A stretch of 64,000 nucleotides of DNA from an uncultured Mollicutes bacterium (GCA_947652375.1 CANTCS010000001.1:68257-132256); one strand, 5' to 3'; counted from the first letter of the stretch, positions 770-62,645 are shown. Numbers and translations: made by a program. Notes: generated by a model not told the origin, from the sequence alone.

Positions 770-848
770 TTTTAGTTAGTCTCCTTCTATTTATTTTATT
801 ATTAAAATTAAAAATCTACTGTTCCATAAAAATAAGAACATTAAGTTC

Positions 849-2006: not shown

Positions 2007-2008
2007 AT

Positions 2009-3593: not shown

Positions 3594-3835
3594 CTATTGT
3601 ATCACCACCTTAGTTTATATTCATTATAACATAAAAATTTGTAGAAAAAAAGGCTGATAATTTTTTTAATTTAATTAAATGTGATTATAAATAAAGCAAG
3701 TATTCTGAATTAAAAATATAGTTAAAATTTATTTAAATTACATAAAAGAAAATGTCAACATTTTTTATGTTAACATTTATTACTTTAGTATCTTTATTTT
3801 TAATTTTTTTCTAATTTAGAGAATAAAACTAATTT

Positions 3836-47753: not shown

Positions 47754-48527
47754 TTATTTGCAAATATTTTCATTCATTTCAATTTCCTTATCTACATAAA
47801 TTTTTTTTGAAGTCTTACAGTAAAGCACATCAAAGTCGTTTCCATGATATAAAACATCATTATTATAACTATATATATTAAATTTCCCTTTTTCTGCCTG
47901 ATATTCTAAAAACTGCAAAAAATCAGAAATTTCTAACCAACCATATGATAAAATCTGATCAAAATATATCATTTTTCCCATACCATTTTCTATTGCTAAA
48001 TTTCCGAAGCAATTATAGTTAATAGTATAATCTTTAATGCTAAAAACATCTGGAATATAACAATAGCCAGTATCATTAATAGGAAATATTTTATATTTTA
48101 ACTTTTTATAATCATCAATTTTTCCACAAAAATTATTATCAACTTTTCCAACCCTATAATTGATTATAATTTTATTATAAAAACCTTCTCTTTCGAAGTT
48201 ATAAGACAATATTGAATAATTGTTTTTCTCATTATAATAAATAGCGTCAGATGAGGTACAATTATATCTTTCGTATTCTTCAAAAATTTTTTTTAATTCC
48301 TTCTGAATAATATATTTACTTCTAAATGTCTTCAATACAATGTAATTCTTTTCCTTTTCTACCACCTTAGAAAAAATCGGAATGTTTATTTCAATGGAAT
48401 CTGAAATATATACTTTACTACCAAATGGATAGAATTTTAAAATCAAGAAAAATAAACATACTAAAAACAATAGCAGTATAAAAATTTTAATAGTAATTTT
48501 TTTCATTATTTGTTCTCTCTTTTCCAA
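47754..48527 (-). CDS. Membrane-anchored Cys-containing extracytoplasmic protein, unknown family
   Basis: N-terminal TM (IFILLLFLVCLFFLIL), then a domain of about 220 aa. No family recognised. Confidence 0.4.
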   Translation of the reverse strand: MEKREQIMKKITIKIFILLLFLVCLFFLILKFYPFGSKVYISDSIEINIPIFSKVVEKEKNYIVLKTFRSKYIIQKELKKIFEEYERYNCTSSDAIYYNEKNNYSILSYNFEREGFYNKIIINYRVGKVDNNFCGKIDDYKKLKYKIFPINDTGYCYIPDVFSIKDYTINYNCFGNLAIENGMGKMIYFDQILSYGWLEISDFLQFLEYQAEKGKFNIYSYNNDVLYHGNDFDVLYCKTSKKIYVDKEIEMNENICK

Positions 48528-48635
48528 TTTATTAATTGTTTAAATTTAATTTTAAGATTATCATTATATTATATTATACTATTTCACAAAAAAATTGCAA
48601 GATTGATTACATAGTGATAATCTTGCAATTTAAAA

Positions 48636-49484
48636 TTATTTATTTAATATATCATTGTTTATGCTATCCAATAAACTTCTTAAATCAGAGTTATTAGTTA
48701 AAACAGAATCAGATTCTGTCAAATCTTCAGAAGATGTACTTTGCTTTTCTATTATCTCATTTTCTAACTGTTCTAATAATGATGATTCTTGTTGACTTTG
48801 AACAGAATAACTATTAAATGAAGCAACTTCTGTTTTATTTTCAGGAATAAATTCTATTTCAATATTATTTATATATCCATAGTCAATAATATACATAACT
48901 TGCCATTCACCAGGTTTATTAACATCAGAAGACTTTTGCGTTTTATATTCTAAAGATGGTGCTTTAATATACTCGCCTGGATTACTTTTCATTTGCGAAT
49001 TTATTGTTCTGTTAAATAAATCAACTAAATAACTTTTACTTATTTTTGTAACATTTAATGTATCTAGATCCTTCAATGTAATTTCTCTTACAAATTTTTT
49101 GTTATTGAAAAAATTGTTAATTTCCTTTATTTCATCTCTGTATTTTTCTGAAGTAGATAATGTTGCATACTTCGACGGTATTCTTTCAATTTCTTCGCCT
49201 GTTTCCATATTCTTATAGGATATATAATATTCTGTACCTTCTGGCTTATGTTTTAAATTATAACCATCAAAGATATAATTAATAGTTTGGTTCTCATCTG
49301 CATAAATTATCTCAAAGCCATATACCCATCCATCTTCTAGTTCATCAAAAACACTGCGTTCTGTATATCCTAATTCACTGTCTACTATAAGTTTTTTATT
49401 ATTTGATTGAGCATGAACAGTAAGTATACCTATTAGTAAAACAACCATACATATACAAGCTGCTACAATTCCACTTTTTTTCAT
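48636..49484 (-). CDS. Secreted protein, unknown family
   Basis: Signal peptide MKKSGIVAACICMVVLLIGILTVHA. 282 aa with an S/E/L-rich tail. Confidence 0.4.
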   Translation of the reverse strand: MKKSGIVAACICMVVLLIGILTVHAQSNNKKLIVDSELGYTERSVFDELEDGWVYGFEIIYADENQTINYIFDGYNLKHKPEGTEYYISYKNMETGEEIERIPSKYATLSTSEKYRDEIKEINNFFNNKKFVREITLKDLDTLNVTKISKSYLVDLFNRTINSQMKSNPGEYIKAPSLEYKTQKSSDVNKPGEWQVMYIIDYGYINNIEIEFIPENKTEVASFNSYSVQSQQESSLLEQLENEIIEKQSTSSEDLTESDSVLTNNSDLRSLLDSINNDILNK

Positions 49485-49523
49485 TCTTTCACCTCCATTT
49501 TTATAAAATTACATATTGTATTA

Positions 49524-50024
49524 TTAATTCATACAAATTCCATAATAGAATAATCCCTGTGGAATAGGAGTACCACCTGTTATTCCAGAAATTGAGAAAT
49601 TCATATATAATTCACAAGTTTGATCTCCTTCACTATCAATATTCCCAGGAGTAATTGTTTTATTAAGCTGAAAATCTGTTAGTACCCTTCCAGTAAAAAA
49701 TCCAATGTAATATTTAACTCTTTCATCTGGTTCATATGCTGGAGGATCATCTTCCATCAAATACCCATGTATAATTGTTCCAGAACTTGGCGTATACCAA
49801 TTTGGTAAACTCCCAAAGTTGGAAAAATAAACGGCAGTGTTGATTCCTTTACAGGCACTTGCTGTTGTTTTTAAGCTTACAATATGCCCTCTATTCTCTG
49901 CATAACCTTGTGGTATTTGAGGAGCTTGTAATCCCCATTCGCAATCTCTTGCATAAACATTAAAATTTCCTACAAAAAATAGTCCAACTAGAAAAATACC
50001 AAACATTATAATCTTTTTTCTCAT
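49524..50024 (-). CDS. Small Sec-exported four-cysteine protein, paralog L
   Basis: Signal peptide ending VYA|RDCEW. Cys at 28, 58, 137 and 164 of 166. Shares ARxCE(W/Y)G, T(T/S)AS(A/S)C, GDQTCELYM and a terminal ICM(N/D) with 60229..60714. Confidence 0.5.
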   Translation of the reverse strand: MRKKIIMFGIFLVGLFFVGNFNVYARDCEWGLQAPQIPQGYAENRGHIVSLKTTASACKGINTAVYFSNFGSLPNWYTPSSGTIIHGYLMEDDPPAYEPDERVKYYIGFFTGRVLTDFQLNKTITPGNIDSEGDQTCELYMNFSISGITGGTPIPQGLFYYGICMN

Positions 50025-50109
50025 ATCATCACCTCCTTCTTAATATATTCTATCAATGCTATAAGCAATTAATAGTCTTTAATAAATTTCAGATGCAACA
50101 ATATTATTA

Positions 50110-50170
50110 TACAAAAAAGCAGTAGCTTCCAATCACAACAATAACTCGCTGCAACGATGAAAGATACTGC
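50110..50170 (-). terminator. Possible terminator after 50244..50915
   Basis: Minus strand: GCAGTA ... TACTGC (6-bp outer stem, long GC-enriched loop) followed by TTTTTT. The geometry is atypical. Confidence 0.3.
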
Positions 50171-50243
50171 ATATTCATCACTAATTTCTTATCTTTATAA
50201 TATCATATATTCTGATAAAAGAAAATAGCAAATAGACAAATTA

Positions 50244-50915
50244 TTACTTTTTTTTACACTTTTTTATTATTAATTCTTTTAATGTAAGAAATATCAAACA
50301 AATTAAATTAAAACAAACTATCACAATGGCTATCTTTATAAAATTATATTTTAATTGTTCTTTTATTAATAAGTGAGTTTTTGCATTTATTTTTAAAAAA
50401 TAATTTTCAAATTCATTATCACTGGTGTACATATTGGATATTTTATATGGTAATTCTGTCCTAAAATTTAATCTAACTTTATTATTAGATTCAAAAAATA
50501 AAATACACACTGTTTTTTCATTGCTATATATAATTATTCTTTGATTTTCTAATATTAGATTAGATTGAATTTCTACCCCATTTTCCTTTAAAAATAGAAC
50601 TATATTTTCTATAGAATCATATTTAGCAAATACTGATACTTCTCCAATGACTCGCTTACGAAAGTCATTTTTATTTATTTGAATAATAGCATCATCACAA
50701 AAAGACAAATAATTATTATTTACAATTAAAGAATCCAAAAAGATAGAATCCAAATCAGATACTTTTATTTTTTCATTATATTGATAAATTCTAATTTCTC
50801 CACTTTTATAGTTGTATTCTTTTTTTAACAAAAATATCCGACAAAAATATAATGTAAGAAAAATAATTATACTCAATATGATAACAACAATATATTTTTT
50901 TGAAAAGTTTGACAT
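50244..50915 (-). CDS. Double-TM envelope protein immediately downstream of effector A (candidate immunity protein)
   Basis: N-terminal TM (IVVIILSIIIFLTLYF) and C-terminal TM (IAIVIVCFNLICLIFLTL) flank a domain of about 150 aa. It starts 78 nt after the stop of A. Confidence 0.4.
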   Translation of the reverse strand: MSNFSKKYIVVIILSIIIFLTLYFCRIFLLKKEYNYKSGEIRIYQYNEKIKVSDLDSIFLDSLIVNNNYLSFCDDAIIQINKNDFRKRVIGEVSVFAKYDSIENIVLFLKENGVEIQSNLILENQRIIIYSNEKTVCILFFESNNKVRLNFRTELPYKISNMYTSDNEFENYFLKINAKTHLLIKEQLKYNFIKIAIVIVCFNLICLIFLTLKELIIKKCKKK

Positions 50916-50993
50916 AATTGCTCACCATTAATATTATACTATAAAAAATAGTTAATTGACTAATTTAATCAATTAACTATCCTTAGTTATATT

Positions 50994-53426
50994 TTATCTT
51001 CCTTCTGTATATTCCTTAAATATAAATGATTTAAATGCATCTATTGCTGCATCAATATATTTTTGTTCAGCACTACTCAATGTTCCCTTTAACTGTTTTA
51101 TAGGCGTTTCATCAGAGTTTATCAACTCACAAAGCTCAATAAAGCGTGATGTTGACATATAATTTAAAAATCTGCTTGCTCTTTTCTCATACTCATATTT
51201 ATGAGTTTCTAAAGATGGTAAAACATAATAAAAGTAAAATGCTTCTGGTAGAGTATGCCCTTTAAATTTAATCATATGGTATAAATTATATGCATCAATA
51301 TCATCTATATAATCTGGAAGATTAAAATGTGCTTGATTTGGAGTACAAATATTATCTTTTGCCCATTTAACATAATCAGTAGTTAATCCATCTTTATCTG
51401 CTTTTTGAATTGAATCTGCATACGAAATTGTATCTCCAGCCCAGCCAGAATAACAATCAACTAATTCGTCAAAACCTCTTAAATCATCATTTCCAATTTG
51501 GTATAGTAACGAATTTAGAGTAGCTGCTAAATGTGGTAAATCATGTGATGTAGTAGGATTTACAGATGAATCTACAAATCCAAAATCCAAATTATATAAT
51601 TTGCTATCTACTAAATTACAATATCCTTTGTCTATAGTACCAGCTACAACATCCCATTTAATATTACCTATTACACCCCCTTCACTTTGACTTCCATTTC
51701 CAGCAAAAATAGATGTATCTCCATAGCGTCCCTTTCTAAGATATTGTAGAACTAATAAATTACTTTTTTCTTCATTGTTATTAGTATAATCTAATGCTAA
51801 ATTATACATATCAACTAAATTATAATATACCTTTCCATAATCTTTTAGATATAGATCCCCTATTAATCCAAGATCCCTACCAGACATCGCATCTTTATCT
51901 ATTTCAATCCTACCCTCTCCAGAGCCGATAGTAACAGTTGCAAATTGATCAAATGCCCAATTATCTGGTATAGGGAATCCTAGATTTCCACTAAATCCTG
52001 TTGACATATCACTAACAAAACTATATTTTGCTAAGCCTTTATTACTAACTCTCGTACAAACATTTCTTGTTCCATATATACTAACAGGGTATTTATTATT
52101 ATACTTACTTTTCATTATATTGTTTATTGTTGTAAAATATGGAATAATATTAGAAGTTATTTCTGTATCTAAAGGATCACAATCGACTGCAAAATAAATA
52201 CTAGTATCACTAGGCATGCCAAGTGCATTTGCGTGTTCAAAAGCACTGTCTACATCTTTTATTGCGTTTTCAGTTGTAAAATATGAAACTTTGTTTGCAC
52301 TTGATTGATGAATTGGAAAAATATATAATCCAGCATCAGCAGCAATTTGTAATTCTTCTCTTGTTAATGCTTTACTTGCTCCACTTGCAATATATCCAGA
52401 TAAGTATCTTCCAACTCTAAGATAACCATTATCATATAAAGTTTTTGCTTTTGCTTGTGTTAAAATAGTAGCACAATCACATGCACTAGCACTTCTATCC
52501 GTGTCTCCACAACTAATTAATAGAGATAACCATGTTGTATAATCTATTTTCCCATTTGCTGAAATAGAGTATTTAGTTTGAAAACTCATTATAGTATTTT
52601 CGTCTAAATTAGATGTTAATTCTCCTGAACCAAATCCATTAAAATACAAAGCTATATTTGCTAAAGTTTTAAATTTATTTAAACTAGCAGTTGAATATGA
52701 TTGTCCATTATATCCAGTACCCGATGATGTTCCGTTTGCTGATAATATTGGTAGACAACGCTTTGTAGATGGTCCACAGTTTCCATTAGCTACTGAAGTA
52801 GGCATACACTCTTCTGCCTGAATTGCATATATCAATGCTTGACTTGTTCTACGAGCATATACTCCATCACATGGTCTAATTCCAATATAGGCTTCATAAT
52901 TTCTATTTAGATATCTTTGCATTTTAATAATATTTTGAGTCTTTTCTGATTGATCATATGAATAGAAGTAATCCATTGATAATAATGCTTTCATAACATT
53001 TAAAGTTACTGTTGAACTTGTATCTGTTAACCCTGCATCTTCCTTTAAATTTTTTATTGCCCCACCTGTTCCTCCGTAAAAATTACATGTAGGCGTGTTA
53101 GCACCTATTGCATATCCTTTGCATAGTAGTGCTCCTTGTATGATTCCATAAATGTTCTTCTTTGTTTTATCATCTGATGATTGTTGTTGTACACCATTAG
53201 GATATTGAGTTTTGAATGCATTTTGTGTACCATTTCCAAAATTATCAGCTGTAGATTGAATTCCTAATTCAATTTGTAATGCTCTTGTTAAAGCATAAAT
53301 GGTAGCCCATCCAGTTTTACCATTTTCTGTAACAGTATTAAATCTACTGTCATTTCCATAAGTATCATTTAACCATTTTTGTGTATAAAATACATATGGA
53401 TCTCCTACTACTTCGTTATTTGCCAT
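50994..53426 (-). CDS. Leaderless cell-wall effector A: three PG-binding-like repeats, a DUF1906/Rv2525c-like glycoside-hydrolase-like domain and a unique C-terminal region of about 295 aa
   Basis: No signal peptide or TM. PG_binding-like units (ADNFGNGTQNAF, FYGGTGGAIKNL, DGVYARRTSQAL). GH25-like TIM-barrel region (GYLRVGRYLSG...IYFAVDCD...IYGTRNVC...DNWAFDQF). The N-terminal 515 aa or so are paralogous to B. Confidence 0.6.
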   Translation of the reverse strand: MANNEVVGDPYVFYTQKWLNDTYGNDSRFNTVTENGKTGWATIYALTRALQIELGIQSTADNFGNGTQNAFKTQYPNGVQQQSSDDKTKKNIYGIIQGALLCKGYAIGANTPTCNFYGGTGGAIKNLKEDAGLTDTSSTVTLNVMKALLSMDYFYSYDQSEKTQNIIKMQRYLNRNYEAYIGIRPCDGVYARRTSQALIYAIQAEECMPTSVANGNCGPSTKRCLPILSANGTSSGTGYNGQSYSTASLNKFKTLANIALYFNGFGSGELTSNLDENTIMSFQTKYSISANGKIDYTTWLSLLISCGDTDRSASACDCATILTQAKAKTLYDNGYLRVGRYLSGYIASGASKALTREELQIAADAGLYIFPIHQSSANKVSYFTTENAIKDVDSAFEHANALGMPSDTSIYFAVDCDPLDTEITSNIIPYFTTINNIMKSKYNNKYPVSIYGTRNVCTRVSNKGLAKYSFVSDMSTGFSGNLGFPIPDNWAFDQFATVTIGSGEGRIEIDKDAMSGRDLGLIGDLYLKDYGKVYYNLVDMYNLALDYTNNNEEKSNLLVLQYLRKGRYGDTSIFAGNGSQSEGGVIGNIKWDVVAGTIDKGYCNLVDSKLYNLDFGFVDSSVNPTTSHDLPHLAATLNSLLYQIGNDDLRGFDELVDCYSGWAGDTISYADSIQKADKDGLTTDYVKWAKDNICTPNQAHFNLPDYIDDIDAYNLYHMIKFKGHTLPEAFYFYYVLPSLETHKYEYEKRASRFLNYMSTSRFIELCELINSDETPIKQLKGTLSSAEQKYIDAAIDAFKSFIFKEYTEGR

Positions 53427-53525
53427 TTTTTCATCTCCTTAAATATTAAATTTTTTACTGCAAATTTTTAGTACATCTAAGCTCTCCAAATTTTTAATTA
53501 CATTTCTAAAAGATTTAATACTAAT

Positions 53526-53861
53526 TTATTCCTCAGTATGATTTGCAAATGATTCTCTAATTTTTTTCAAAACTTCATAATAATTGATTTCGTTAATTCT
53601 TTTTACATTATATAGTAATAACTCTGTTATAATATCTGCTGCCTCATTTAAATATAATCTTATATCAATCTCTACATCATTCTCATTTAATTCATGTGGT
53701 ATACTATATTTTAATAACTTCTCTTTAGTATTACTTGCTAATTCTCTAGCTGTTGCATCATCATTTTCATCTATATTTTTTGTTAAAATACCTATAAGAG
53801 TGTTATATTCTTTCTTTGTAAGAATTAACTTAATTGGTGGTACTCTTTTCACATATGCCAT
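53526..53861 (-). CDS. Hypothetical protein (111 aa)
   Basis: ORF between the sigma-like gene and effector A. No family recognised. Confidence 0.35.
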   Translation of the reverse strand: MAYVKRVPPIKLILTKKEYNTLIGILTKNIDENDDATARELASNTKEKLLKYSIPHELNENDVEIDIRLYLNEAADIITELLLYNVKRINEINYYEVLKKIRESFANHTEE

Positions 53862-53879
53862 TTTTTCATCTCCGTTCTT

Positions 53880-54065
53880 TTACTTTCTTAACCTATTTAC
53901 AACCACTTTAACATTCTCTTTTTTTAAACAATCTAAATTCAAATTATTTAAATCTACTTTATTGATAAAATCGATAATCATTTGTCTTGCTCTTTTTTTG
54001 TTTTTTGCATTTACTTCAAAAGAAAGTGATTTTAGCTGATTTATTTCTACTGTGAATTTTTTCAT
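53880..54065 (-). CDS. Small basic hypothetical protein (61 aa)
   Basis: ORF with no family recognised. Confidence 0.3.
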   Translation of the reverse strand: MKKFTVEINQLKSLSFEVNAKNKKRARQMIIDFINKVDLNNLNLDCLKKENVKVVVNRLRK

Positions 54066-54125
54066 TATAATTTTGACTATTAAACACTAAATCTTTTAAA
54101 ATTAGCTTATAAAATTTTTGGATAG

Positions 54126-54157
54126 CAAGTGAAAGAGCATTATATCCCTTTCACTTG
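54126..54157. other. 10-bp-stem hairpin between the sigma-like gene and the downstream small genes
   Basis: CAAGTGAAAG-(12 nt)-CTTTCACTTG. There is no clean T-run on the minus strand, so it is possibly a partial attenuator or RNA-processing site. Confidence 0.3.
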
Positions 54158-54186
54158 TTTCCTAACTTAAATATGTTTTGTGTAGT

Positions 54187-54663
54187 CTAATTTTTAAATT
54201 TTTTTGATAATTTTTGAATTGCAATATCTATACTAAACTTTACTGCTCTTTTTGTGCATCCTTCTTCTATTGCTATTTTTTCATATGTTTTGTGTTCTAT
54301 ATAATACTTTTTTAATCTATTTTTTTGTATAGTTGGCAATTCTTCTATAAAACTATTCAATAGTTCTATCATTAATTTAGTTTCAATAATGTCTTCTATT
54401 GATATATCTTTATTAAAAGATCTTTTGTATAAAGTTTCTTCATAAAGTTCTGAGTGCTCAATATGATTATCATATTCATTCATTTCAGATAAATCTTCTA
54501 ACTCAAACTTATTGAACTCTTTATATAACAATTCATTTATTTCAATCACTCGAGTAATGTTATTCACATCTTTAAATGAGAGAGTATAAGTCTTTTTTAC
54601 TTCATCAAATCCAAGTGTATAAGGATTATCCTTGCTTTTTCTTCTTTTTGGGAACACACCCAT
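54187..54663 (-). CDS. Sigma-70 region-4-like HTH regulator (no recognisable region 2)
   Basis: C-terminal LPTIQKNRLKKYYIEHKTYEKIAIEEGCTKRAVKFSIDIAIQKLSKKF is a region-4/LuxR-like HTH. The N-terminal half resembles the small sigma-like proteins of Gram-positive conjugative transposons. Confidence 0.55.
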   Translation of the reverse strand: MGVFPKRRKSKDNPYTLGFDEVKKTYTLSFKDVNNITRVIEINELLYKEFNKFELEDLSEMNEYDNHIEHSELYEETLYKRSFNKDISIEDIIETKLMIELLNSFIEELPTIQKNRLKKYYIEHKTYEKIAIEEGCTKRAVKFSIDIAIQKLSKKFKN

Positions 54664-54676
54664 AATTTTTTCCTCC

Positions 54677-54704
54677 TATCAATTTCATTTTTTTAAAATT
54701 GATA
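54677..54704. promoter_or_regulatory. Inverted repeat TATCAATTT-N10-AAATTGATA abutting the SD of the sigma-like gene (candidate operator or 5'-UTR hairpin)
   Basis: Perfect 9-bp arms at 54677..54685 and 54696..54704. GGAGGA (54676..54671 on the minus strand) follows directly. Confidence 0.35.
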
Positions 54705-54751
54705 GAAATAGGGGGACCTCTTATCCTAAGAAAAAGTATTTCTATAAATTG

Positions 54752-54802
54752 AAAAAGACTATATTTCTTATAAGCTTTTAGAGCAAAGAATATAGTCTTT
54801 TT
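54752..54802. terminator. Bidirectional intrinsic terminator downstream of the holin
   Basis: AAAAAGACTATAT (54752..54764) pairs with ATATAGTCTTTTT (54790..54802). The A-run and T-run allow termination on either strand. Confidence 0.5.
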
Positions 54803-55124
54803 ATGATTTAATATACTATCTTTTCTTACTAAAAAATATGTATAATACTTTTCTGGTTCCATAATAATCGCTCCATAAAAGCAATTCATATAAAGCAAAA
54901 ATAAATACTACACAATTTTTTTGCATATATAAAACTAGTATCTATAGTAAGAATAGAAAGTGTATTATACTACTTTTTACTTCTTACTACTTAACTAGTT
55001 TCTTTTTATTATTTCACCATCACATTTCTTAATATAAATACTTGGCATTTTTGCCTTGCTATCATAAATATTATACAATAAAATTCGACTTTTTTAAACA
55101 CTGCTAAAGTTTAACAATAATTAT

Positions 55125-55562
55125 TTATGATTTATGATTTGATTCTTCTCCTTTTATGGTTTCTATGTCATTTTCATCTTGATCTTTATTTAATTTTTCA
55201 AGCGATTTATATAAAATATTAGGAACTTTGATTCCCATAGCACTACTATTTTCTAAAATTGATAACATCTCATTAAAAATAAATGAATATATAATTAATG
55301 CTCTTAAGCCTCCATTTACTTCCAATAAATTATCTAATATTACTGCCACTGCAACAACACATAAGTATACTGCTTTTTTTATAATTCCTTTACCTCCTAT
55401 ACTGCTATTAACTTTTTTCGTAATAAAGGCTCTACTTACACCTGTTATATAATCTATAAACATTAAAGACAATAAAGTTTTTAACATAAAATCAAAACTT
55501 CCAAATAAAAAAATCAAAAAAGATAACAAAAAACTAATTATATTATCAAAAATTTGTTTCAT
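55125..55562 (-). CDS. Holin of the TcdE / LL-H (phage_holin_4_1-type) family
   Basis: 145 aa with three TMs, the DYITGVSRAF...NSSIGGKGIIKK motif shared with TcdE-type holins, and a charged C-terminal tail. Confidence 0.75.
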   Translation of the reverse strand: MKQIFDNIISFLLSFLIFLFGSFDFMLKTLLSLMFIDYITGVSRAFITKKVNSSIGGKGIIKKAVYLCVVAVAVILDNLLEVNGGLRALIIYSFIFNEMLSILENSSAMGIKVPNILYKSLEKLNKDQDENDIETIKGEESNHKS

Positions 55563-55611
55563 TTTTCTTCACCTCTCTTTATAAAATTGACTTAAAATAT
55601 CTACTCATAAA

Positions 55612-55663
55612 CAAATATAAAAAGGGTGTTAATCAATATAAAAATTATATATTAATTAACACC
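55612..55663 (-). terminator. Intrinsic terminator between the endolysin and the holin
   Basis: 16-bp stem with one mismatch (GGTGTTAATCAATATA / TATATTAATTAACACC, 55625..55663) followed on the minus strand by CTTTTTATATTT. Confidence 0.55.
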
Positions 55664-55696
55664 GAATAAATTACCGTAATTATAAATTATTTTTTA

Positions 55697-56455
55697 CTAA
55701 TATTTTAATATTTGCCCTATTTTAATTAAATCAGGGTTATTACCTATAATGTCTTTATTTAATTCATATAATTTTTCCCAAGTTGTTCCAAACTTTTTAG
55801 CTATTTTTATTAGAGTATCATCTTTTTTCACCATATAAAAATTTGTCCCTTTTAGCTCTTTATTTTTTATTTCATTTACTATCTTTTGAACATCACTTGC
55901 ATTATATCCCATATTTGTAAGTTTATCAATTCTAGTCTTTCCATTACCATATTTCCCCGCAATTACTTCATAAGCAATTTCTATTAAATCTATTTTAGAT
56001 GTCTCAGAATGATTAATGTTTTTTAACTGGTAATCATAATTATGTGGATCTTCATATTCCCCACCATTACTATTTTTCATTCCTAAATGCAAATGAATTC
56101 CTGTTGCCATACCAGTTGAGCCTGTATAGCCAAGCAATAACCCTTCATGAACTTCTTGCCCTGTTTTTACACAAATACTATCTAAATGGTAATGCAAAAT
56201 TTTTTTATTGATTCTTGGATAATTTACCCATATAAATTTAGCTCCATCAGAAGCGATTCCACAGGATAAAATTTTGCCATTTTCTAATGCATATTGTCCC
56301 CACTTTTCTCCGTTAGTTCCATAATCGCATCCATTATGAAAGTTGGTGGTTATACCTTTTTTAGTTTTAATTGGAGCTCTACTCCCAAAAGGGGAAGTTA
56401 CATACCAATCATTTCTTTTAAATATTTTAGTTGCAAGTTTTATTTTAATCACCAT
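55697..56455 (-). CDS. Leaderless endolysin: M23 peptidase, CW_7 repeat and LysM
   Basis: No signal peptide. M23 ligands HNGCDY and HLHLG. CW_7-type IAYEVIAGKYGNGKTRIDKLTNMGYNASDVQKIV. LysM YMVKKDDTLIKIAKKFGTTWEKLYELN. Confidence 0.8.
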   Translation of the reverse strand: MVIKIKLATKIFKRNDWYVTSPFGSRAPIKTKKGITTNFHNGCDYGTNGEKWGQYALENGKILSCGIASDGAKFIWVNYPRINKKILHYHLDSICVKTGQEVHEGLLLGYTGSTGMATGIHLHLGMKNSNGGEYEDPHNYDYQLKNINHSETSKIDLIEIAYEVIAGKYGNGKTRIDKLTNMGYNASDVQKIVNEIKNKELKGTNFYMVKKDDTLIKIAKKFGTTWEKLYELNKDIIGNNPDLIKIGQILKY

Positions 56456-56461
56456 CCTCGC

Positions 56462-56503
56462 TTATAAATAAAATAAAGAAAATGCATATCAAGCATTTTC
56501 TTT
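56462..56503 (-). terminator. Intrinsic terminator after the lipoprotein gene
   Basis: AAAGAAAATGC (56475..56485) pairs with GCATTTTCTTT (56493..56503). The minus strand continues ATTTTATTTAT. Confidence 0.6.
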
Positions 56504-56538
56504 ATTAATCATGATAATAGTTTTAGACTGGCATTTTA

Positions 56539-57075
56539 TTATTGACATTTATAACTATTTCTAGAACATTTGACAACTTCGTCTGAACTAGAAATACTAG
56601 CACTTCCATTATAATATATATAATCATCATCTACATTTTTTATAGAAGTTAACATTAATTTACTATCTAATTTTGATAATAAATCTATTTTGCTAGTCTT
56701 ACTTCCAGATAAAGTATACTCTAAAACTACTCCTCCAGAACATCTATTAACATAAAGCTTATCACCATAAAAATAATTTTGATTTTTATTTTTGTAAGCT
56801 TCAGAAGAATTACAAGAATTTATTTCATCAAGCAATATATAATCATCATCTGTTACCTTATAAAATAAACCACTAATTCGTTCTTCATTATTTTCAGGAG
56901 TGATATCAGTAATAATATACTCATGCTTATGATTATCATCATCTACATAGGAATATCTATTAGTAATATCATAATTCTTTAAATTATAATGTTTAAAATC
57001 TGTATATTGACTGTTATTTTCACATCCACATACACATAATATCAAAAATAAAAGTATAACTACATTTTTTTTCAT
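56539..57075 (-). CDS. Lipoprotein immediately downstream of effector B (candidate immunity protein)
   Basis: Start at ATG 57075 (MKKNVVILLFLILCVCGC, lipobox-like VCGC). It begins 62 nt after the stop of B and is followed by a terminator. No family recognised. Confidence 0.45.
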   Translation of the reverse strand: MKKNVVILLFLILCVCGCENNSQYTDFKHYNLKNYDITNRYSYVDDDNHKHEYIITDITPENNEERISGLFYKVTDDDYILLDEINSCNSSEAYKNKNQNYFYGDKLYVNRCSGGVVLEYTLSGSKTSKIDLLSKLDSKLMLTSIKNVDDDYIYYNGSASISSSDEVVKCSRNSYKCQ

Positions 57076-57137
57076 CTTAATCACCAAAACTATTATATCA
57101 TATTATATTATACTTGATAATATCTAATGATAATTTT

Positions 57138-59396
57138 CTAATACCAAGCTCTTTCAGATCCTTGACTAGCGTACTCAATTCCAATGCTTGCATAACCAGA
57201 AAAACTAGTAAATGAACTACTGCCTTTTTTCTTAATTCCATCTATACGGTTTGTCCATGGTCTTGTGTACCCTGGATTAATAAAATTACCTCTATTTATT
57301 TTTATATAATCACCCTTATTAAGCATTCCTACATAAGTTCCTTGGGCATTAAAATAAGGAACTGGTTTATTAATATAGATTTCTCTTGATGATGTATCAT
57401 CCCATTTATGCAATATATATTCATCAGAAGCTTGATCATATTCTACACAAGTGAATGGTTCATGACCTACTAATATTTGTGCTTTTACGGCTTCATCATC
57501 AGTAGGATTTAAAGTCATACTAGGTAAAACATACTGTTCTCTTATATAACCTATTTTGACATCTTTACCATCATTAAACATGACTCTATGAACATTATCC
57601 ATACTAGGGCTACTAACTTGATATCTAACATAGAAATCATGAGGCTTAATATAACCTATTATACCCCCTGTAGGTTCGTACATTGGTACAACTGGGGCAA
57701 CCTCAGGCATAACTGGCATTTTTTTTGCATAAACAGGCACTGATGATTCAGTCATATTTATTAAAATTCTTCCTCCACCTTCATAAAGATTTGTATGATT
57801 ACAATCACCATCAGCAACAGAGTATTCTTGGGCAATACCTTCATATCTTCCAGAAAATCCATCTTTATCTATTTCTATTGATTTTCCACCAGATGATATT
57901 GTTGTAGTATTAAATTGATCAAATGCCCAATTATCTGGTATAGGAAATCCTAGATTTCCACTAAATCCTGTTGACATATCACTAACAAAACTACTACATG
58001 CATAACCAGCATTACATACCCTAGTACATAAATTTCTCGTTCCATAAACACCAACACGGTATTTACCTTTTCCAGCAGTCATGAAACTTGAATATAGAGT
58101 TTTGAAATAAGGTAAAATTAAACTTGAAATTTCTGCATCTGTTGCATCATAATCTACCGCAAAGTAAATGATTGATCCAAATTGTAATTTTAAATTATCA
58201 GCATACTCTGCTGCACTCTCTGCATCTGCTTGTGCATTTTCTACGGTAAAATATGAAGCCTTGTTAGCTGATCTTTGATGAATTGGAAATAATCTAATAC
58301 CATTCTTAAATAACACTTGTAATTCTGTTGTAGATAATGCTTTACTTGCTCCACTTGCAATATATCCAGATAAATATCTACCAATATATTTATAATTATT
58401 ATTTTTTAAAACACTAACATTATCAGTAGTTATTATGGTAGCACAATCACATGCAACTGCACTTCTATCTGTGTCCCCACAACTAATTAATAGAGATAAC
58501 CATGTTGTATAATCAATCTTACCTGTTGCTGTAATTGAATATTTTGATTGAAAACTTTTTATAGTATTTTCGTTTAGATTAGATGTTAATTCTCCTGAAC
58601 CAAATCCATTAAAATATAATGCTATATTTGCTAAAGTTTTAAATTTATTTATACTATCTGTTGAATATGCTTGTCCCTTATAACTAGTTCCTGAAGATGA
58701 GCCAGTTACTGAAAGTGTTGGCAAACATCTTTTTGTAGCTGGTCCACAGTTACCATTTGCTTCTGATGTTGTCATGCCTTCCTCAGCTTGAATTGCAAAG
58801 ATTAATGCTTGACTTGTTCTACGAGCATATACTCCATCACAAGGTCTAATACCAATATAGGCTTCATAATTTCTATTTAGATATCTTTGCATTTTAATAA
58901 TATTTTGAGTCTTTTCTGATTGATCATATGAATAGAAGTAATCCATTGATAATAATGCTTTCATAACATTTAAAGTTACTGTTGAACTTGTATCTGCTAA
59001 TCCTGCATCTGCTTTTAATTTCTTTATAGCTCCACCTGTTCCTCCATAAAAATGACAAGTTGGTGTATTTGCTCCAAAATCATAACCTTTACAGATTAAA
59101 GCTCCTTGTATAATTCCATAAACATTATCTGATGATTTATCATCATCTGATTGTTGTTTTACTCCATTTGGAAACTTACTTTTAAATGCATTTTGTGTTC
59201 CATTTCCAAAATTATCAGCTGTAGATTGAATTCCTAATTCAATTTGCAATGCTCTTGTAAGAGCATAAATAGTAGACCATCCTGTTTTTCCATTTTCAGT
59301 TACAGTATTAAATCTACTATCAGACCCATATGTTTCGTTTAACCATTTTTGTACATTGTATACATATGGATCTCCAGTCGTTGTTTTTTCTGCCAT
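57138..59396 (-). CDS. Leaderless cell-wall effector B: the same PG-binding-like plus DUF1906-like N-terminal module as A, with a different C-terminal region of about 245 aa
   Basis: Start set to ATG 59396 (MAEKTTTGDPYV), which is in register with the start of A and 8 nt after AAGGAGA. The track start at 59405 lies inside the SD. The C-terminal part (VPVYAKKMPVMPE..., GTYVGMLNKGDYIKINRG) may include SH3-like wall-binding folds. Confidence 0.6.
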   Translation of the reverse strand: MAEKTTTGDPYVYNVQKWLNETYGSDSRFNTVTENGKTGWSTIYALTRALQIELGIQSTADNFGNGTQNAFKSKFPNGVKQQSDDDKSSDNVYGIIQGALICKGYDFGANTPTCHFYGGTGGAIKKLKADAGLADTSSTVTLNVMKALLSMDYFYSYDQSEKTQNIIKMQRYLNRNYEAYIGIRPCDGVYARRTSQALIFAIQAEEGMTTSEANGNCGPATKRCLPTLSVTGSSSGTSYKGQAYSTDSINKFKTLANIALYFNGFGSGELTSNLNENTIKSFQSKYSITATGKIDYTTWLSLLISCGDTDRSAVACDCATIITTDNVSVLKNNNYKYIGRYLSGYIASGASKALSTTELQVLFKNGIRLFPIHQRSANKASYFTVENAQADAESAAEYADNLKLQFGSIIYFAVDYDATDAEISSLILPYFKTLYSSFMTAGKGKYRVGVYGTRNLCTRVCNAGYACSSFVSDMSTGFSGNLGFPIPDNWAFDQFNTTTISSGGKSIEIDKDGFSGRYEGIAQEYSVADGDCNHTNLYEGGGRILINMTESSVPVYAKKMPVMPEVAPVVPMYEPTGGIIGYIKPHDFYVRYQVSSPSMDNVHRVMFNDGKDVKIGYIREQYVLPSMTLNPTDDEAVKAQILVGHEPFTCVEYDQASDEYILHKWDDTSSREIYINKPVPYFNAQGTYVGMLNKGDYIKINRGNFINPGYTRPWTNRIDGIKKKGSSSFTSFSGYASIGIEYASQGSERAWY

Positions 59397-59473
59397 ATTT
59401 TTCATCTCCTTAAATATTAAATTTTTTATCTAATATATAGAAAGATTAAAATACCGTATTCAAGTCCGTTTCA

Positions 59474-59502
59474 ATCATAATATCAAATAAAATGATTGAC
59501 AA
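59474..59502 (-). promoter_or_regulatory. Candidate sigma-A-type promoter of the effector B operon
   Basis: The minus strand reads TTGTCA (59502..59497), a 17-nt spacer, then TATGAT (59479..59474), about 75 nt upstream of the start of B. Confidence 0.45.
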
Positions 59503-59564
59503 TTGAACACAATAGATATAAATACCATATTTTATTTATAGTCCGGACATATAAAATAAATATT

Positions 59565-59624
59565 GTATAATAAAAAAGTGTTAACTATAATAAAACCAAT
59601 CCAAGGTCTATATATAATTAACAC
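59565..59624 (-). terminator. Intrinsic terminator after 59747..60241; sequence-related to the terminator at 55612..55663
   Basis: GTGTTAACTATA (59578..59589) pairs with TATAATTAACAC (59613..59624) with one mismatch. The minus strand continues TTTTTTATTATAC. Confidence 0.5.
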
Positions 59625-59746
59625 CGAAAATATACCGTATTCATTTGTCATAACAATATTAACATTTAATCAAATATTAGTCAATATATTTTCTTGATTT
59701 TTAAATTTTTTTGACATATATTCTATTGTTTCTTTATTTGATACTA

Positions 59747-60241
59747 TTACTCTATTTTACTAGAATCTGATACCCAATCGGAATTTATATTGGCTGATAT
59801 TCCATCCACTATCTCTAAATGATTATAATTATTTGTATCTACTTTAATAAAGAAATAAAATGGAATATTATTTGATAAGCTATAAGATTTATCTTTAGCA
59901 AGATTATCACAACTATAAGTACCATCATTACATTCTGAATTATAATTAACCTTTATATAAAGAATATTGCTTTGAGATTTATAATATCCATATAATTGTA
60001 AGCTCTCTAGTTCAATTAATTTTAAATTAGAGTTGTCAAAATAATCTGAACTATCAATTTTCTTATAAACAGCGTCTACTATTTTTTGTTCCTTTTTATT
60101 AAATCTTTCATTTGTATCCAAGCCATTGCTTTTCGTTTTATTTGTTGGTTTTTTGAATAAAAAAATTAATGATGATACTATTATCAATAATAAAATTAAT
60201 ACCATTATCCAAATTTTTTTATTTTTTTTTAATCCATGCAT
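59747..60241 (-). CDS. Membrane-anchored extracytoplasmic protein, unknown family
   Basis: N-terminal TM (IWIMVLILLLIIVSSLIFLF). 164 aa. Overlaps the upstream gene by 13 nt. Confidence 0.4.
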   Translation of the reverse strand: MHGLKKNKKIWIMVLILLLIIVSSLIFLFKKPTNKTKSNGLDTNERFNKKEQKIVDAVYKKIDSSDYFDNSNLKLIELESLQLYGYYKSQSNILYIKVNYNSECNDGTYSCDNLAKDKSYSLSNNIPFYFFIKVDTNNYNHLEIVDGISANINSDWVSDSSKIE

Positions 60242-60714
60242 ATTGTATACCTAAACATATCACTGTCAAAGTATTCAACATTATTATGTGCTAATGGCTC
60301 TTTTAATCTAAATTTCATATACAACTCACAAGTTTGATCTCCAGCACTATCCAAATTACCATCAAATTTTTGCTGTAAAGTCCATTTCATTAAACTATAA
60401 CCTGAATTATAACCAAAATATAATTTAGCTTTATCATCTGGATTAGGATCTTTATCTTTTTCCATTAAATATGCCTCTATGGTAAAATTATGAGTGGATA
60501 AATAATTTCCATCACTAAAATAAACATACATATTATCAGCTAGACATGATGATGCTGAAGTCTTAAAATTTATTACTTGTCCATAAGCCCAATTTCCATT
60601 ATAGTATATTGGTGGTGATGGCATTCCATACTCACAAGTCCTAGCTTCAACTGCAAACGGCATAAAAACTGCCATACATAAAATTATAAATACTGCTTTT
60701 TTCATAATTAACAT
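60229..60714 (-). CDS. Small Sec-exported four-cysteine protein, paralog R
   Basis: Signal peptide ending VEA|RTCEY. Mature Cys at 27, 57, 129 and 159 of 161. Paralog of 49524..50024. The start may be ATG 60705. Confidence 0.5.
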   Translation of the reverse strand: MLIMKKAVFIILCMAVFMPFAVEARTCEYGMPSPPIYYNGNWAYGQVINFKTSASSCLADNMYVYFSDGNYLSTHNFTIEAYLMEKDKDPNPDDKAKLYFGYNSGYSLMKWTLQQKFDGNLDSAGDQTCELYMKFRLKEPLAHNNVEYFDSDMFRYTICMD

Positions 60715-60821
60715 TCCTCCCTTTCTACATCCAAATACATAAATAAATTAAAATAAACTATTGTTATTCATCTCCCTTTCTTCATTATATTTTACAGATA
60801 CATTATAGCATAAATATCTAA

Positions 60822-61391
60822 CTATTTTTGATTATTTTTTAAAATATTATATTCTATTTGTTCTTTTACATCCTCTAAACTATCTAATTCATATATTTTA
60901 CTTAAATCTGCACTTATTTTAAGATATATTTCATTGCTATCATCAAAATAACTTACATATATATTTTCTTTATTAGCACCATAAACATTGACAATAGATT
61001 TTATTTTTTTATTATCTATTATTACAGGGAGCTCTTTTTCAGAAGATAATTTAAATCCTATAACTCTAAAGTTTTTTTCTTGATCTTGATTAAAAATGTA
61101 TATATAATCTTGGGTTCCCAATATAATATCTCCTTTTTTATAATACAATGAATCTATAGAAAAAAATAATTGATATTCCTCAGTTTGTTCTCCTTGTTTT
61201 AAAATGCTTAATGAGCCATCTTTAACCCCCGTATAAGTATTTTCATACAAAATTGCATAGTTCAACCAACGCTGCCCATTATTAGAGTCTATATATGTAG
61301 GATGATAAGAATAACCCGTTTCTTTTGTACTACATCCAGATAAAAATAAAATTAAAAACAAAAAAACAATTAATGTATATTTTTTTACCAT
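60822..61391 (-). CDS. Lipoprotein, unknown family
   Basis: Lipobox LFLSGC after a signal peptide. 189 aa. Confidence 0.5.
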   Translation of the reverse strand: MVKKYTLIVFLFLILFLSGCSTKETGYSYHPTYIDSNNGQRWLNYAILYENTYTGVKDGSLSILKQGEQTEEYQLFFSIDSLYYKKGDIILGTQDYIYIFNQDQEKNFRVIGFKLSSEKELPVIIDNKKIKSIVNVYGANKENIYVSYFDDSNEIYLKISADLSKIYELDSLEDVKEQIEYNILKNNQK

Positions 61392-61528
61392 TAAATTGTC
61401 CCCTTTCGCATATAATTCAAATAACTAAACTTATTTATTTTATTATATCACAAAATTTATTGTTTATTCGTACTTTTGCATTACTTTTTTTCCACAATAA
61501 TAAATACAATATAGTAGGAGGTGAAAGA

Positions 61529-61942
61529 ATGAAAAAAATATTAATGTCGTTATTTGTTTTAGGAATAACTGTTTTATCCCTTTTTGGGGCAACAAAAGTT
61601 TCTGCAGCTGAATACAAATCAACATTAAATATGCCAGCTAATTCAAATCATATTGGTGCCTATAGATGGTTTGATACAAAAAATTTCATCATAGAGATAT
61701 CTATGGATGCTCATACAGATTGTACATCTAATAGAGAAAAACTTTTATGGGTTACATTACACTTCGGTCCAACCACTCAAGTATCCGGTAAAATGATGGG
61801 TACAGAATTATATCGATGCGTTATAGCTAACATGGGAAAATTTAAAAACGGACAATATGCATATGGATTCTCTACAAATTATTCAGGTGGAAGACAATTT
61901 TGTGGAATTAAATCAAATAGTGTAATTATGAGTCAAAACTAA
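61529..61942 (+). CDS. Small secreted protein, unknown family, first gene of the ABC operon
   Basis: ATG at 61529 preceded by GTAGGAGGTGAAAGA. Signal peptide MKKILMSLFVLGITVLSLFGATKVSA|AEY. The longer track ORF from 61325 has no SD. Confidence 0.55.
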   Translation: MKKILMSLFVLGITVLSLFGATKVSAAEYKSTLNMPANSNHIGAYRWFDTKNFIIEISMDAHTDCTSNREKLLWVTLHFGPTTQVSGKMMGTELYRCVIANMGKFKNGQYAYGFSTNYSGGRQFCGIKSNSVIMSQN

Positions 61943-61964
61943 GTAAAAAGAAAGAAGGTAAATA

Positions 61965-62645
61965 ATGATAGAGTTAATTAATATACAAAAAAAATATTTA
62001 TTGAAAAATAAATTCATAAATGCTTTAGATGATATTAATATTAAGTTTGAAAAAGGAAAATTGTATGGAATTATGGGCGAATCTGGAAGTGGAAAATCTA
62101 CATTAATACAAATAATCGGACTTCTTATAGAGCCAACAAGTGGAATATTAAAAATAGATGGGCATGATACATCAAAATTATCAGAAAAAAAAATAGCTAA
62201 TCTTAGAAAAGAGGAATTATCATATATATTTCAATCTTTTAATTTGATTCCAACAATGAATGTTACAGAAAATGTAATCTTACCTCTTTATACTAATAAA
62301 AATTTAACCAAAAAAGAAAAAGTTGAAAGAGTCAATAACTTATTGAATTCACTAGGAATAGAGAATAGAAATAGGCATTACCCAAATCAACTTTCTGGTG
62401 GAGAACAACAAAGAGTTGCAATTGCTCGTGCTCTATGCAATAATCCAGAGATTATATTAGCCGATGAGCCTACTGCTTCTTTAGATAAGGAAAACACAAT
62501 TAAAATTTTAAGTATATTAAAAAAACTCTCAAATCAAGATAAATGTGTAATCGTTATTTGCCATGATGACATTATTAAAGATTATGCTGATGAAATTATT
62601 TACCTAAAAAATGGAAGGATGGAGATTATAGATGAAATTAATTGA
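61965..62645 (+). CDS. ABC transporter ATP-binding protein (MacB/LolD-like)
   Basis: Walker A GESGSGKST, signature LSGGEQQR, Walker B ILADEPTASLD. Confidence 0.9.
   Translation: MIELINIQKKYLLKNKFINALDDINIKFEKGKLYGIMGESGSGKSTLIQIIGLLIEPTSGILKIDGHDTSKLSEKKIANLRKEELSYIFQSFNLIPTMNVTENVILPLYTNKNLTKKEKVERVNNLLNSLGIENRNRHYPNQLSGGEQQRVAIARALCNNPEIILADEPTASLDKENTIKILSILKKLSNQDKCVIVICHDDIIKDYADEIIYLKNGRMEIIDEIN

Follow-up and report, generated by a model that had tools for sequence, protein, structure and literature searches.

A probable Bac41-like bacteriolysin or polymorphic wall-toxin-immunity cluster carried as cargo of an integrative and conjugative element in uncultured gut 'Bacilli'

We analyzed a 64-kb stretch of DNA from an uncultured Mollicutes bacterium (CANTCS010000001.1:68257-132256, assembly GCA_947652375.1), hereafter the window, in which positions 47754-61391 hold a locus of 15-16 genes, all on the minus strand, that includes two large paralogous genes, effectors A and B. 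We propose, with a probability of about 0.6, that this locus is a bacteriolysin determinant of the Bac41 type, or polymorphic wall-toxin-immunity cluster, carried as cargo of an integrative and conjugative element (ICE) of uncultured gut 'Bacilli'. Open reading frames (ORFs) were found at all the gene positions given in a first-pass annotation of this DNA, and its placement of fifteen genes on one strand holds for the strand, while the count becomes 16 once a 78-aa ORF at 54626-54862 is included. The Pfam scan of the window covered the ten largest ORFs, 35 more ORFs of at least 90 aa in the region 1-44 kb, and the locus itself. Among these scanned ORFs are an integrase, a relaxase, ArdC, SSB, PrgI, a VirB4-like ATPase, and a CHAP hydrolase whose gene adjoins that of VirB4, together with a coupling protein, a primase, a sortase, and two large adhesins, and it is the adhesin genes of the ICE that the locus abuts. 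From the integrase, relaxase, VirB4-like, and coupling genes the locus is ICE cargo, in line with the original suggestion that it is carried next to or inside an ICE, and phage structural families of Pfam were absent from the same scanned ORFs, in agreement with the claim that this is not an ordinary prophage.

By sequence, both effectors are members of the BacA/YbfG/YkuG family, in which peptidoglycan-binding domains (PGBD) precede an Rv2525c-like domain. An ungapped stretch of 529 aa is 74% identical between A and B, which are unrelated beyond that point, and the tail junction in the family lies after a conserved EIDKD..SGR stretch. Over approximately 520 aa, A (aa 9-520) is 44% identical and B 42% identical to BacA of Enterococcus faecalis, and an alignment of 12 sequences from the BacA/YbfG/YkuG family contains 96 invariant columns. 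Pfam matches both proteins to Rv2525c_GlyHyd-like (E ~5e-45) and to PG_binding_1. The start codon of B lies at 59405 (755 aa) or at 59396 (752 aa). No hydrophobic N-terminus is present in A or B, the maximal 19-residue hydropathy being 0.97 and 1.14, respectively, and the M23 lysin encoded in the locus is likewise without one, as are BacL1, BacA, and the plasmid homologues. The first-pass annotation had described A and B as leaderless proteins free of transmembrane (TM) segments, with unrelated C-terminal regions, and had called PG_binding_1, DUF1906/Rv2525c, holin, M23, CW_7, and LysM domains in the locus, all of which the hydropathy, the end of similarity after 529 aa, and the Pfam profile searches bear out. 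It had also given three peptidoglycan-binding-like repeats to each effector; a single PG_binding_1 repeat per protein is significant in Pfam, so the number three rests on the weaker repeats.

The locus was at first thought to have no described counterpart, but one exists, since the relative of A and B in Bac41 is BacA and the two loci have a common layout with homologous holins. The Bac41 determinant is found on the E. faecalis plasmid pCQ025-1, where the gene for a 595-aa peptidoglycan hydrolase is followed by bacL2, whose product reaches 264.8 bits with the NCBIfam BacL2 equivalog, then by genes annotated as a 'phage holin family protein' and a hypothetical protein, and finally by those for a 733-aa relative of A and B and a YcxB-family protein with two TM segments. 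The literature on Bac41 describes BacL1 and BacA as secreted effectors that together lyse E. faecalis, BacL2 as a positive regulator, and BacI as the self-protection factor of a system that kills other strains. The window resembles Bac41 in having a leaderless BacA-family effector with a separate leaderless peptidoglycan hydrolase and a candidate positive-regulator gene, a PF05105 holin between the regulator and the effector (31% identity between the two holins, E 7e-8), a small membrane protein directly after the effector, carriage on a conjugative element, and a variable effector C-terminus that in Bac41 is tied to immunity. Kurushima and co-workers reportedly found in 2016 that the C-terminal region of BacA, with BacI1 or BacI2, sets immunity specificity. 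In the accessible parts of two reports, Bac41 subtypes have diversity downstream of bacA that is tied to specific immunity factors (PMC8532689; PMC11808071).

The two systems also differ. The window has two effectors whereas Bac41 has one, and the tails in the window are TelC-like and SH3b-like whereas the BacA type ends in a hydrophobic segment. In E. faecalis BacA this C-terminus (locus L006, 7996-8199) contains a hydrophobic glycine-rich stretch at aa 687-713 that is absent from A and B and that might insert into membranes. The window lysin combines M23, CW_7, and LysM domains whereas BacL1 is a lysozyme-like, NlpC/P60, and SH3 protein; the window regulator is a sigma-region-4 protein that fails the NCBIfam BacL2 model; neither candidate immunity protein shows homology to the YcxB-family protein encoded at the BacI position; and the host is an uncultured low-GC Bacilli lineage of metagenome-assembled genomes (MAGs), with an ICE as the carrier. 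Membership of the 158-aa regulator in the BacL2 family was considered separately and rejected, there being no BLAST match and an hhalign probability of 1.6%.

The tail of A resembles a TelC-like (Lipocone) domain in which the signature residues of the family are intact. TelC of Streptococcus intermedius, the partner of TipC, is an LXG toxin that is exported by type VII secretion and acts as a lipid II phosphatase. Pfam matches the tail to PF27189 'YkzU', and a profile built from 19 A-type tails has TelC (5UKH; E 0.0047) as its sole match in the PDB, a match by sequence profile that is weak but specific and consists of three collinear segments (pHlaatLn/THQSITM, aGWaGD/AGWEGD, and DYidDiDAvNi/DYKADLDSVNI). 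The AlphaFold2 (AF2) model of the tail is all-helical with a predicted local distance difference test score (pLDDT) of 87.9, and in Foldseek it ranks 5ukh first, weakly (E 0.16, probability 0.69, template modeling score 0.35). Conserved in A are H632, G661-W-x-G-D665, D705, D709, D711, and R749. Five of these residues, H632, D665, D705, D711, and R749 (H112, D145, D185, D191, and R229 of the tail), vary little or not at all among 17-52 sequences and align with TelC residues in the 5UKH profile match. The accessible part of a recent study of the Lipocone superfamily gives the TelC-family signature as a His in helix 2, an Asp in helix 3 (GWxGD), an Asp in helix 4, a further Asp at +6, and an Arg in the C-terminal helix (Burroughs et al., 2025), and the A tail keeps the His, the GWxGD and DYxxDxD motifs, and the C-terminal Arg of TelC. 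By analogy we infer that it may cleave a lipid II-type substrate. The same part of that study has TelC toxic only from outside the membrane (Burroughs et al., 2025), which fits a surface-exposed protector of A. Unlike TelC, A has no LXG domain, its delivery module being PGBD plus the Rv2525c-like domain, and type VII genes were absent from the scanned ORFs of the window.

The TelC-like tail domain is not confined to proteins such as A. An exhaustive profile search found it in 673 representative clusters, one match being named RHS core protein, and the search reached no LXG partner. In a fusion tally of 52 of the best-scoring hits, picked to omit most proteins of typical A/B length, the partners were Rv2525c/PGBD, ricin-type lectins, Big_2, CBM96, RHS repeats, choline-binding repeats, and SLH. 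Joined in this way to RHS, lectin, Big_2, and choline-binding proteins, the TelC-like tail behaves as a shuffled extracellular effector domain. The fusion of PGBD, an Rv2525c-like TIM barrel, and prok-TelC has already been noted in the accessible part of the Lipocone study (Burroughs, Nicastro, and Aravind, 2025), where proteins with the architecture of A have fast-evolving small secreted or multi-TM proteins as neighbors. That part of the text mentions no holins, bacteriocins, M23 lysin, sigma-like regulator, or ICE carriage, and, holins and bacteriocins going unmentioned there, it makes no tie to Bac41 or BacA; the Actinomycetota partners that it lists (an Ig pair; 3TM-CCDN with VanY) are not at the window locus.

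The tail of B is of another kind and in its predicted structure looks like tandem SH3b wall-binding modules. Its AF2 model (pLDDT 83.7) is all-beta, and the best Foldseek matches are YrvJ, T. vaginalis NlpC2, the teichoic-acid-binding domains of SlpA/SlpX, LytB, and the SH3b domain of LysF1 (E 0.01-2). A conserved DxVHKVxF motif in B-type tails leaves some doubt on the absence of an enzyme. The proposal that A and B are swappable wall-targeting effectors is favored by the TelC-like tail of A, whereas the tail of B looks wall-binding only, an outcome that the first-pass annotation had itself named as counting against its model. Among the 120 closest homologues, the A-type tail occurs in 71 and the B-type tail in 51.

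We surveyed the family by scanning one genome per species, which gave 80 loci. In 84 family genes, at least nine unrelated tail types are attached to the one N-terminal module (30 TelC-like, 20 SH3b-like, 19 giant, six of the BacA type, and five rarer types), and the C-termini are indeed swappable, as had been supposed from A and B. The closest loci (93% identity) are in MAGs of uncultured 'Bacilli' from the human gut, and the family is also present in Clostridia, Bifidobacterium, Gardnerella, Atopobium, Paenibacillus, and others. The gene downstream of a family member nearly always encodes a small protein with one to five TM segments, drawn from many unrelated families, so that the layout first described here, an effector followed by a small envelope-exposed protein, is near-universal in the survey; the small multi-TM neighbors in other loci gave no match to the holin profile. 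The commonest neighbor family is the sigma-like regulator (23 loci), which occurs either in the window form with a novel N-terminal half or as a full extracytoplasmic function (ECF) sigma factor beside single-TM anti-sigma-like genes, and the M23 lysin family is beside effector genes in six loci. The order effector, lipoprotein, M23 lysin, holin, regulator, and 111-aa gene is found again in divergent ICE loci, completely in L018 and to some extent in L013 and L015. The giant members, of 1380-1800 aa with tails of 770-1160 aa, are in Acutalibacteraceae and other Clostridia (L033, L035-L041, L043-L046, L049, L050, L054, and L058), where their genes are followed by conserved small TM proteins (c10 and c19, or c14), often beside an ECF sigma/anti-sigma-like pair.

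Relatives of A and B are also on plasmids, where tblastn found them on approximately 565 records (384 from Enterococcus and 72 from Lactiplantibacillus, with one match annotated 'ybfG'), and in phage records, where PHROG 15213 covers A almost end to end. Three loci are prophage-like (L072, L085, and L088, from Atopobium, Helcococcus, and Gardnerella) and contain VapE, SNF2, a DUF1492 sigma-region-4 activator, the effector, HNH, and a small terminase; the placement of the family gene in them differs from the classical position of a lysis cassette. From these plasmid, ICE, and prophage-like loci and PHROG 15213, the family rides plasmids, ICEs, and phages. One plasmid member, a 783-aa BacA-family protein of Enterococcus faecium with a TelC-like tail (WP_000344083.1), is encoded at L007 5998-8824, which belongs to the 152-kb plasmid record NZ_CP011282.1, and on many other large records from clinical isolates. 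Two small secreted proteins precede its gene and a 131-aa TM protein follows, with no holin annotated nearby, and no paper describing this protein was found.

Each effector gene in the window is followed by a gene for a candidate immunity protein. The 223-aa gene lies directly 3' of A across a 79-nt gap, in the window as in L009, L010, and L017, and hydropathy places the TM segments of its product at residues 1-32 and 188-218. The protein is an orphan whose only relatives in a set of 5.8 billion proteins are at least 72% identical, with no Pfam or NCBIfam family and nothing credible in the PDB, and, unrelated as it is to any solved structure, no link to TipC is seen. The 182-aa putative lipoprotein encoded after B likewise has no Pfam or NCBIfam family and nothing credible in the PDB. 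Promoter-like sites precede both genes, at 50933-50962 for the 223-aa gene and at 57092-57120, with an extended -10, for the lipoprotein gene; such sites are no commoner here than in shuffled sequence. The TM ends, the lipobox-like leader, and the hairpins agree with the arrangement read initially from the DNA, in which A is followed by a double-TM protein, B by a lipoprotein, and each of these by a terminator; the hairpin at 50119-50170 has a dG of -24.8 kcal/mol and a z of -3.9.

The pairing of B with the lipoprotein recurs across the survey. The lipoprotein family is downstream of SH3b-type effectors only, at seven loci in the automated count plus L053 from its gene map, of 20, and at none of the 64 genes of other types. 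Furthermore, in two human-gut MAG loci that are 93-95% identical to the window (L009 and L017), B and the lipoprotein gene have been deleted together (window region 56636-59351; 6054-6891 in L009/L017), the deletion removing ~1.67 kb of B and ~290 bp of the lipoprotein gene while the other genes are intact. A small TM protein follows TelC-type genes in 29 of 30 cases, a double-anchored protein like that of 223 aa in some loci and a protein with 3-5 TM segments, often encoded on the opposite strand, in others. We infer that the 223-aa protein would protect the producer from A and the lipoprotein would protect it from B.

The remaining genes between the effectors suggest how A and B might be released and regulated. 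The identification of a TcdE/LL-H-family holin is upheld by PF05105 and by TIGR01593 'toxin secretion/phage lysis holin' (105.7 bits, cut-off 40.2), and the protein also matches the PHROG 199 holin. Pfam domains and hydropathy agree on a leaderless M23-CW_7-LysM endolysin, which matches PHROG endolysin/metallo-endopeptidase families and is a candidate for either the positional analogue of BacL1 or a release endolysin. In the 158-aa protein Pfam and NCBIfam detect just region 4, as in the original reading of it as a helix-turn-helix protein of that type. The set recalls TcdE/TcdL/TcdR and UviB/UviA, which serve clostridial toxins and BCN5, in its TIGR01593 holin, its leaderless large cargo, its lysin-type partner, and its sigma-like regulator, and differs from them in its unrelated cargo, in having an intact lysin where they have a remnant, and in a regulator that shows only region 4. 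By analogy, the export of A and B would depend on the holin, to which we give slightly less than an even chance. A similar cargo is described for lactococcal ICEs, which combine a holin, a BacA-like protein, and wall hydrolases (PMC11288074); there the holin is reported to be of the SPP1 type and the cluster is annotated only, its likeness to the window being one of description.

Upstream of B the tandem boxes AAACGGACTTGA / ATACGGTATTTT lie at 59448-59472. The pattern WTACGGTAWWTT occurs three times in the window, in each case on the coding strand of the locus, with two copies 5' of B and one 5' of the holin gene; an in-window estimate of chance for it is circular because the pattern was derived from those same sites. 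In L011, L015, and L018 it recurs 45-55 nt 5' of effector start codons, where ~110 nt are conserved. When the metagenome collection was searched for the 23-nt tandem, 14 sites were obtained, of which five, in low-GC contigs, carry the whole element, two of them (L094 and L097) directly before effector genes with 59-74% protein identity; the remaining nine are chance matches in unrelated coding DNA. On this sequence conservation, the 110-nt element with its tandem ACGG boxes is a candidate effector promoter/operator. A has no upstream ACGG element and is probably transcribed by read-through from the regulator operon. The ACGGTA box and hairpin between the lysin and holin genes share the 14-mer TTCGGTGTTAATTA, which is matched exactly at 59615-59628. 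Beside the regulator, the family of its 111-aa companion (c23) also follows the regulator in L009, L013, L015, L017, and L018, and the 78-90-aa ORF is kept in L009 and L017. Neither the 111-aa protein nor the 61-aa ORF matches a family in Pfam, NCBIfam, or PHROG.

Several points weigh against the Bac41-type interpretation. No homology links the regulator to BacL2, the lysin to BacL1, or either candidate immunity protein to the protein in the BacI position, and the Bac41 literature terms the activity of BacA undefined, peptidoglycan hydrolysis by it not having been detected. The link of the A tail to TelC is weak by sequence and by fold alike, an enzyme fold is absent among the Foldseek matches of the B-tail model, and TelC-type tails have many unrelated small partners rather than one co-varying immunity family. 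A PF05105 holin lies within 10 kb at only nine of the 80 genome loci, so holin-gated export is no family-wide trait, and no holin is annotated near the plasmid copies of E. faecium and L. plantarum. Finally, that the 158-aa regulator binds the tandem ACGG boxes is pure conjecture.

With these points in mind, we put forward a hypothetical mechanism for the locus as a wall-toxin-immunity cluster. The regulator would switch on the effector promoter that contains the tandem ACGG boxes, and the holin, perhaps together with the M23 lysin, would release the signal-less proteins, either non-lytically or through the lysis of some of the cells. Once outside, the N-terminal module would bind or open the peptidoglycan of related cells that lack the element. 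The tail of A would then act on the outer membrane surface of these cells, cleaving lipid II or some similar precursor linked to undecaprenyl, while B and the M23 enzyme would attack or target the wall. The 223-aa double-anchored protein would shield the producer from A and the lipoprotein would shield it from B. The net outcome would be that element-free competitors are killed and the ICE is stabilised.

Among the alternatives, the one that survives best, improbable as we consider it, is that these proteins serve conjugation, by remodeling the donor or recipient wall for the mating channel or in surface exclusion. Besides abutting the ICE adhesin genes, the locus has the 166-aa and 282-aa exported proteins traveling along with it, and in L012, L015, L019, and L020 the cluster begins directly 3' of VirB4-like and CHAP transfer genes, with the 166/282-aa pair itself in that position in L012 and L015. 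However, the ICE already has its own CHAP hydrolase next to VirB4, family members are on plasmids of 8-9 kb, 223-224 of 564-565 plasmid records are typed non-mobilizable, and antagonism is favored by the TelC tail, by tails that vary and are paired with small membrane proteins, and by the Bac41 precedent. A regulated autolysis module, in which the holin, the lysin, and A/B would break open a fraction of the host cells to release DNA, the ICE, or biofilm matrix while the small proteins modulate the process, seems to us slightly less probable again. A holin, an intact lysin, and a dedicated regulator are the standard lysis set, and for the similar lactococcal ICE cargo either autolysis or the lysis of neighbors has been proposed (PMC11288074), but TelC acts only from outside the cell, the domains of the candidate protectors face outward, antagonistic systems typically combine variable tails with paired partners, and Bac41 kills other strains. 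Least probable is that no functional unit exists and that the holin and the M23 lysin are remnants of a prophage lysis cassette lying between two unrelated wall enzymes. In favor of this, both proteins match phage lysis families (PHROG 199 for the holin), and A-like proteins occur in phage records and prophage-like loci. Against it, there is no phage structural gene in the scanned ORFs, the gene order is repeated in L018 and to some extent in L013 and L015, a homologous holin occupies the corresponding place in Bac41, and the locus genes are all intact on a single strand.

If the locus is a Bac41-type cluster, what is new relative to Bac41 is the presence of two effectors, their tails, the non-homologous lysin, regulator, and partners, and carriage by an ICE in an uncultured lineage. 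Neither the link between the BacA family and the TelC tail nor the conserved upstream element was found in the literature consulted, and we regard them as modest advances that set up no new category. BacA is placed in a large mobile-element family with a fixed wall-binding module and exchangeable tails, the commonest of which resembles TelC, and this offers a testable idea of the function of the BacA family. The regulator and the tandem ACGG boxes form a testable regulatory pair, and the locus suggests a possible non-type-VII route for TelC-type toxins. Bac41 is widespread in clinical E. faecalis. TelC-tailed copies are on several hundred Enterococcus plasmid records, many of them clinical, and on many plasmids of Lactiplantibacillus plantarum, and because of these copies the idea has implications for how plasmids are maintained and how strains compete among gut and food bacteria. 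A wider view, which we hold only tentatively and think rather unlikely, is that the BacA family is a general Gram-positive platform for polymorphic toxins, in which interchangeable killing domains are carried through the target wall, with a TelC-type domain exported here via a TcdE-type holin without type VII and with a sigma-region-4 activator acting on ACGG boxes. If true, it would explain the need for BacA in Bac41 killing even though BacA has shown no hydrolase activity.

Table 1. Coordinates of the features discussed, as positions in the 64-kb window.
Feature	Position	Strand	Remarks
ICE integrase	9589-10869		just beyond the chromosomal left end
166-aa (secreted, Cys-containing), 282-aa (secreted), and 257-aa (TM anchor) exported proteins	47754..50024	-	
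Intrinsic-terminator-like hairpin and U-run	50113..50170	-	after the 223-aa gene; hairpin 50119-50170
223-aa protein, candidate immunity protein for A	50244..50915	-	TM at both ends, exposed central ~155 aa
Effector A, 810 aa	50994..53426	-	BacA/YbfG-family module (aa 1-520) and TelC-like tail; Pfam
TelC-like (Lipocone, Pfam YkzU) domain of A	50997..51866	-	aa 521-810; profile, AF2, Foldseek
111-aa protein, conserved companion of the regulator	53526..53861	-	family c23
61-aa ORF	53880..54065	-	between the regulator and 111-aa genes
Sigma-like regulator, 158 aa	54187..54663	-	sigma-70 region 4 helix-turn-helix at aa 100-155; novel N-terminal half
78-90-aa ORF	54626..54898	-	upstream of and overlapping the regulator gene; called 78 aa in metagenome contigs
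Holin, 145 aa, TcdE/UviB/LL-H family	55125..55562	-	PF05105 (Phage_holin_4_1), E 3e-35
ACGGTA box, then terminator-like hairpin	55625..55679	-	between the M23 and holin genes
Leaderless M23 lysin, 252 aa	55697..56455	-	Peptidase_M23, CW_7, and LysM (Pfam)
Terminator-like hairpin	56472..56506	-	after the lipoprotein gene
182-aa putative lipoprotein, candidate immunity protein or partner for B	56539..57087	-	signal/lipobox-like N-terminus
Effector B, 755 aa	57138..59405	-	same N-terminal module as A and all-beta tail; Pfam, AF2
All-beta tail of B	57141-57836	-	aa 524-755; like tandem SH3b wall-binding domains
Conserved upstream region of B, candidate promoter/operator	59406..59520	-	tandem boxes
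Second ACGGTA box, hairpin, and T-run	59580..59640	-	after the 164-aa gene
164-aa (TM anchor), 161-aa (secreted, Cys-containing), and 189-aa (lipoprotein, LSGC lipobox) exported proteins	59747..61391	-	

The locus is flanked on both sides by small exported proteins, none of which has a credible Pfam family. The 161-aa (60229-60714) and 166-aa (49524-50024) proteins are secreted paralogues, 35% identical with conserved Cys positions. The families of the 164-, 161-, and 189-aa proteins recur beside effector genes, as do those of the 166-aa protein (14 loci) and of the 282-aa protein (11 loci), which often form a pair. Rfam gave no match within the locus, and neither the plasmid nor the phage collection gave a megablast match to the 13.6-kb sequence.

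At the other end, window positions 1-6500 are chromosomal, with genes for a pcsB-like M23 protein, ftsX, ftsE, a peptide chain release factor (prfB), and the YitT family. A search for the borders of the ICE found no tRNA gene and was uninformative on attachment (att) repeats, the longest sequences shared exactly by the integrase side and the far side being AT-rich 14-20-mers.

Beside the locus, the plus strand at 61325-63849 encodes a 137-aa small secreted protein, an ATP-binding cassette (ABC) ATPase, and a 4-TM FtsX-type permease, which may be a second system for export or self-protection. The secreted protein (61529-61939, ATG at 61529) has no credible Pfam family, and the guess that it is a lactococcin 972-type bacteriocin is unsupported by any such family. 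The models that fit the ATPase best, though below their cut-offs, are those for DarD and for lactococcin-972-type bacteriocin exporters. The trio accompanies effector genes in L011, L013, L018, and L023 in differing arrangements. In two metagenome contigs with an identical A protein (L002 19304-22433 and L004 10175-13304), the gene for a 1050-aa Flg_new adhesin is shortened to 422 aa and is followed by a split tyrosine integrase gene and a Fic gene, which points to a further insertion or rearrangement at this edge.

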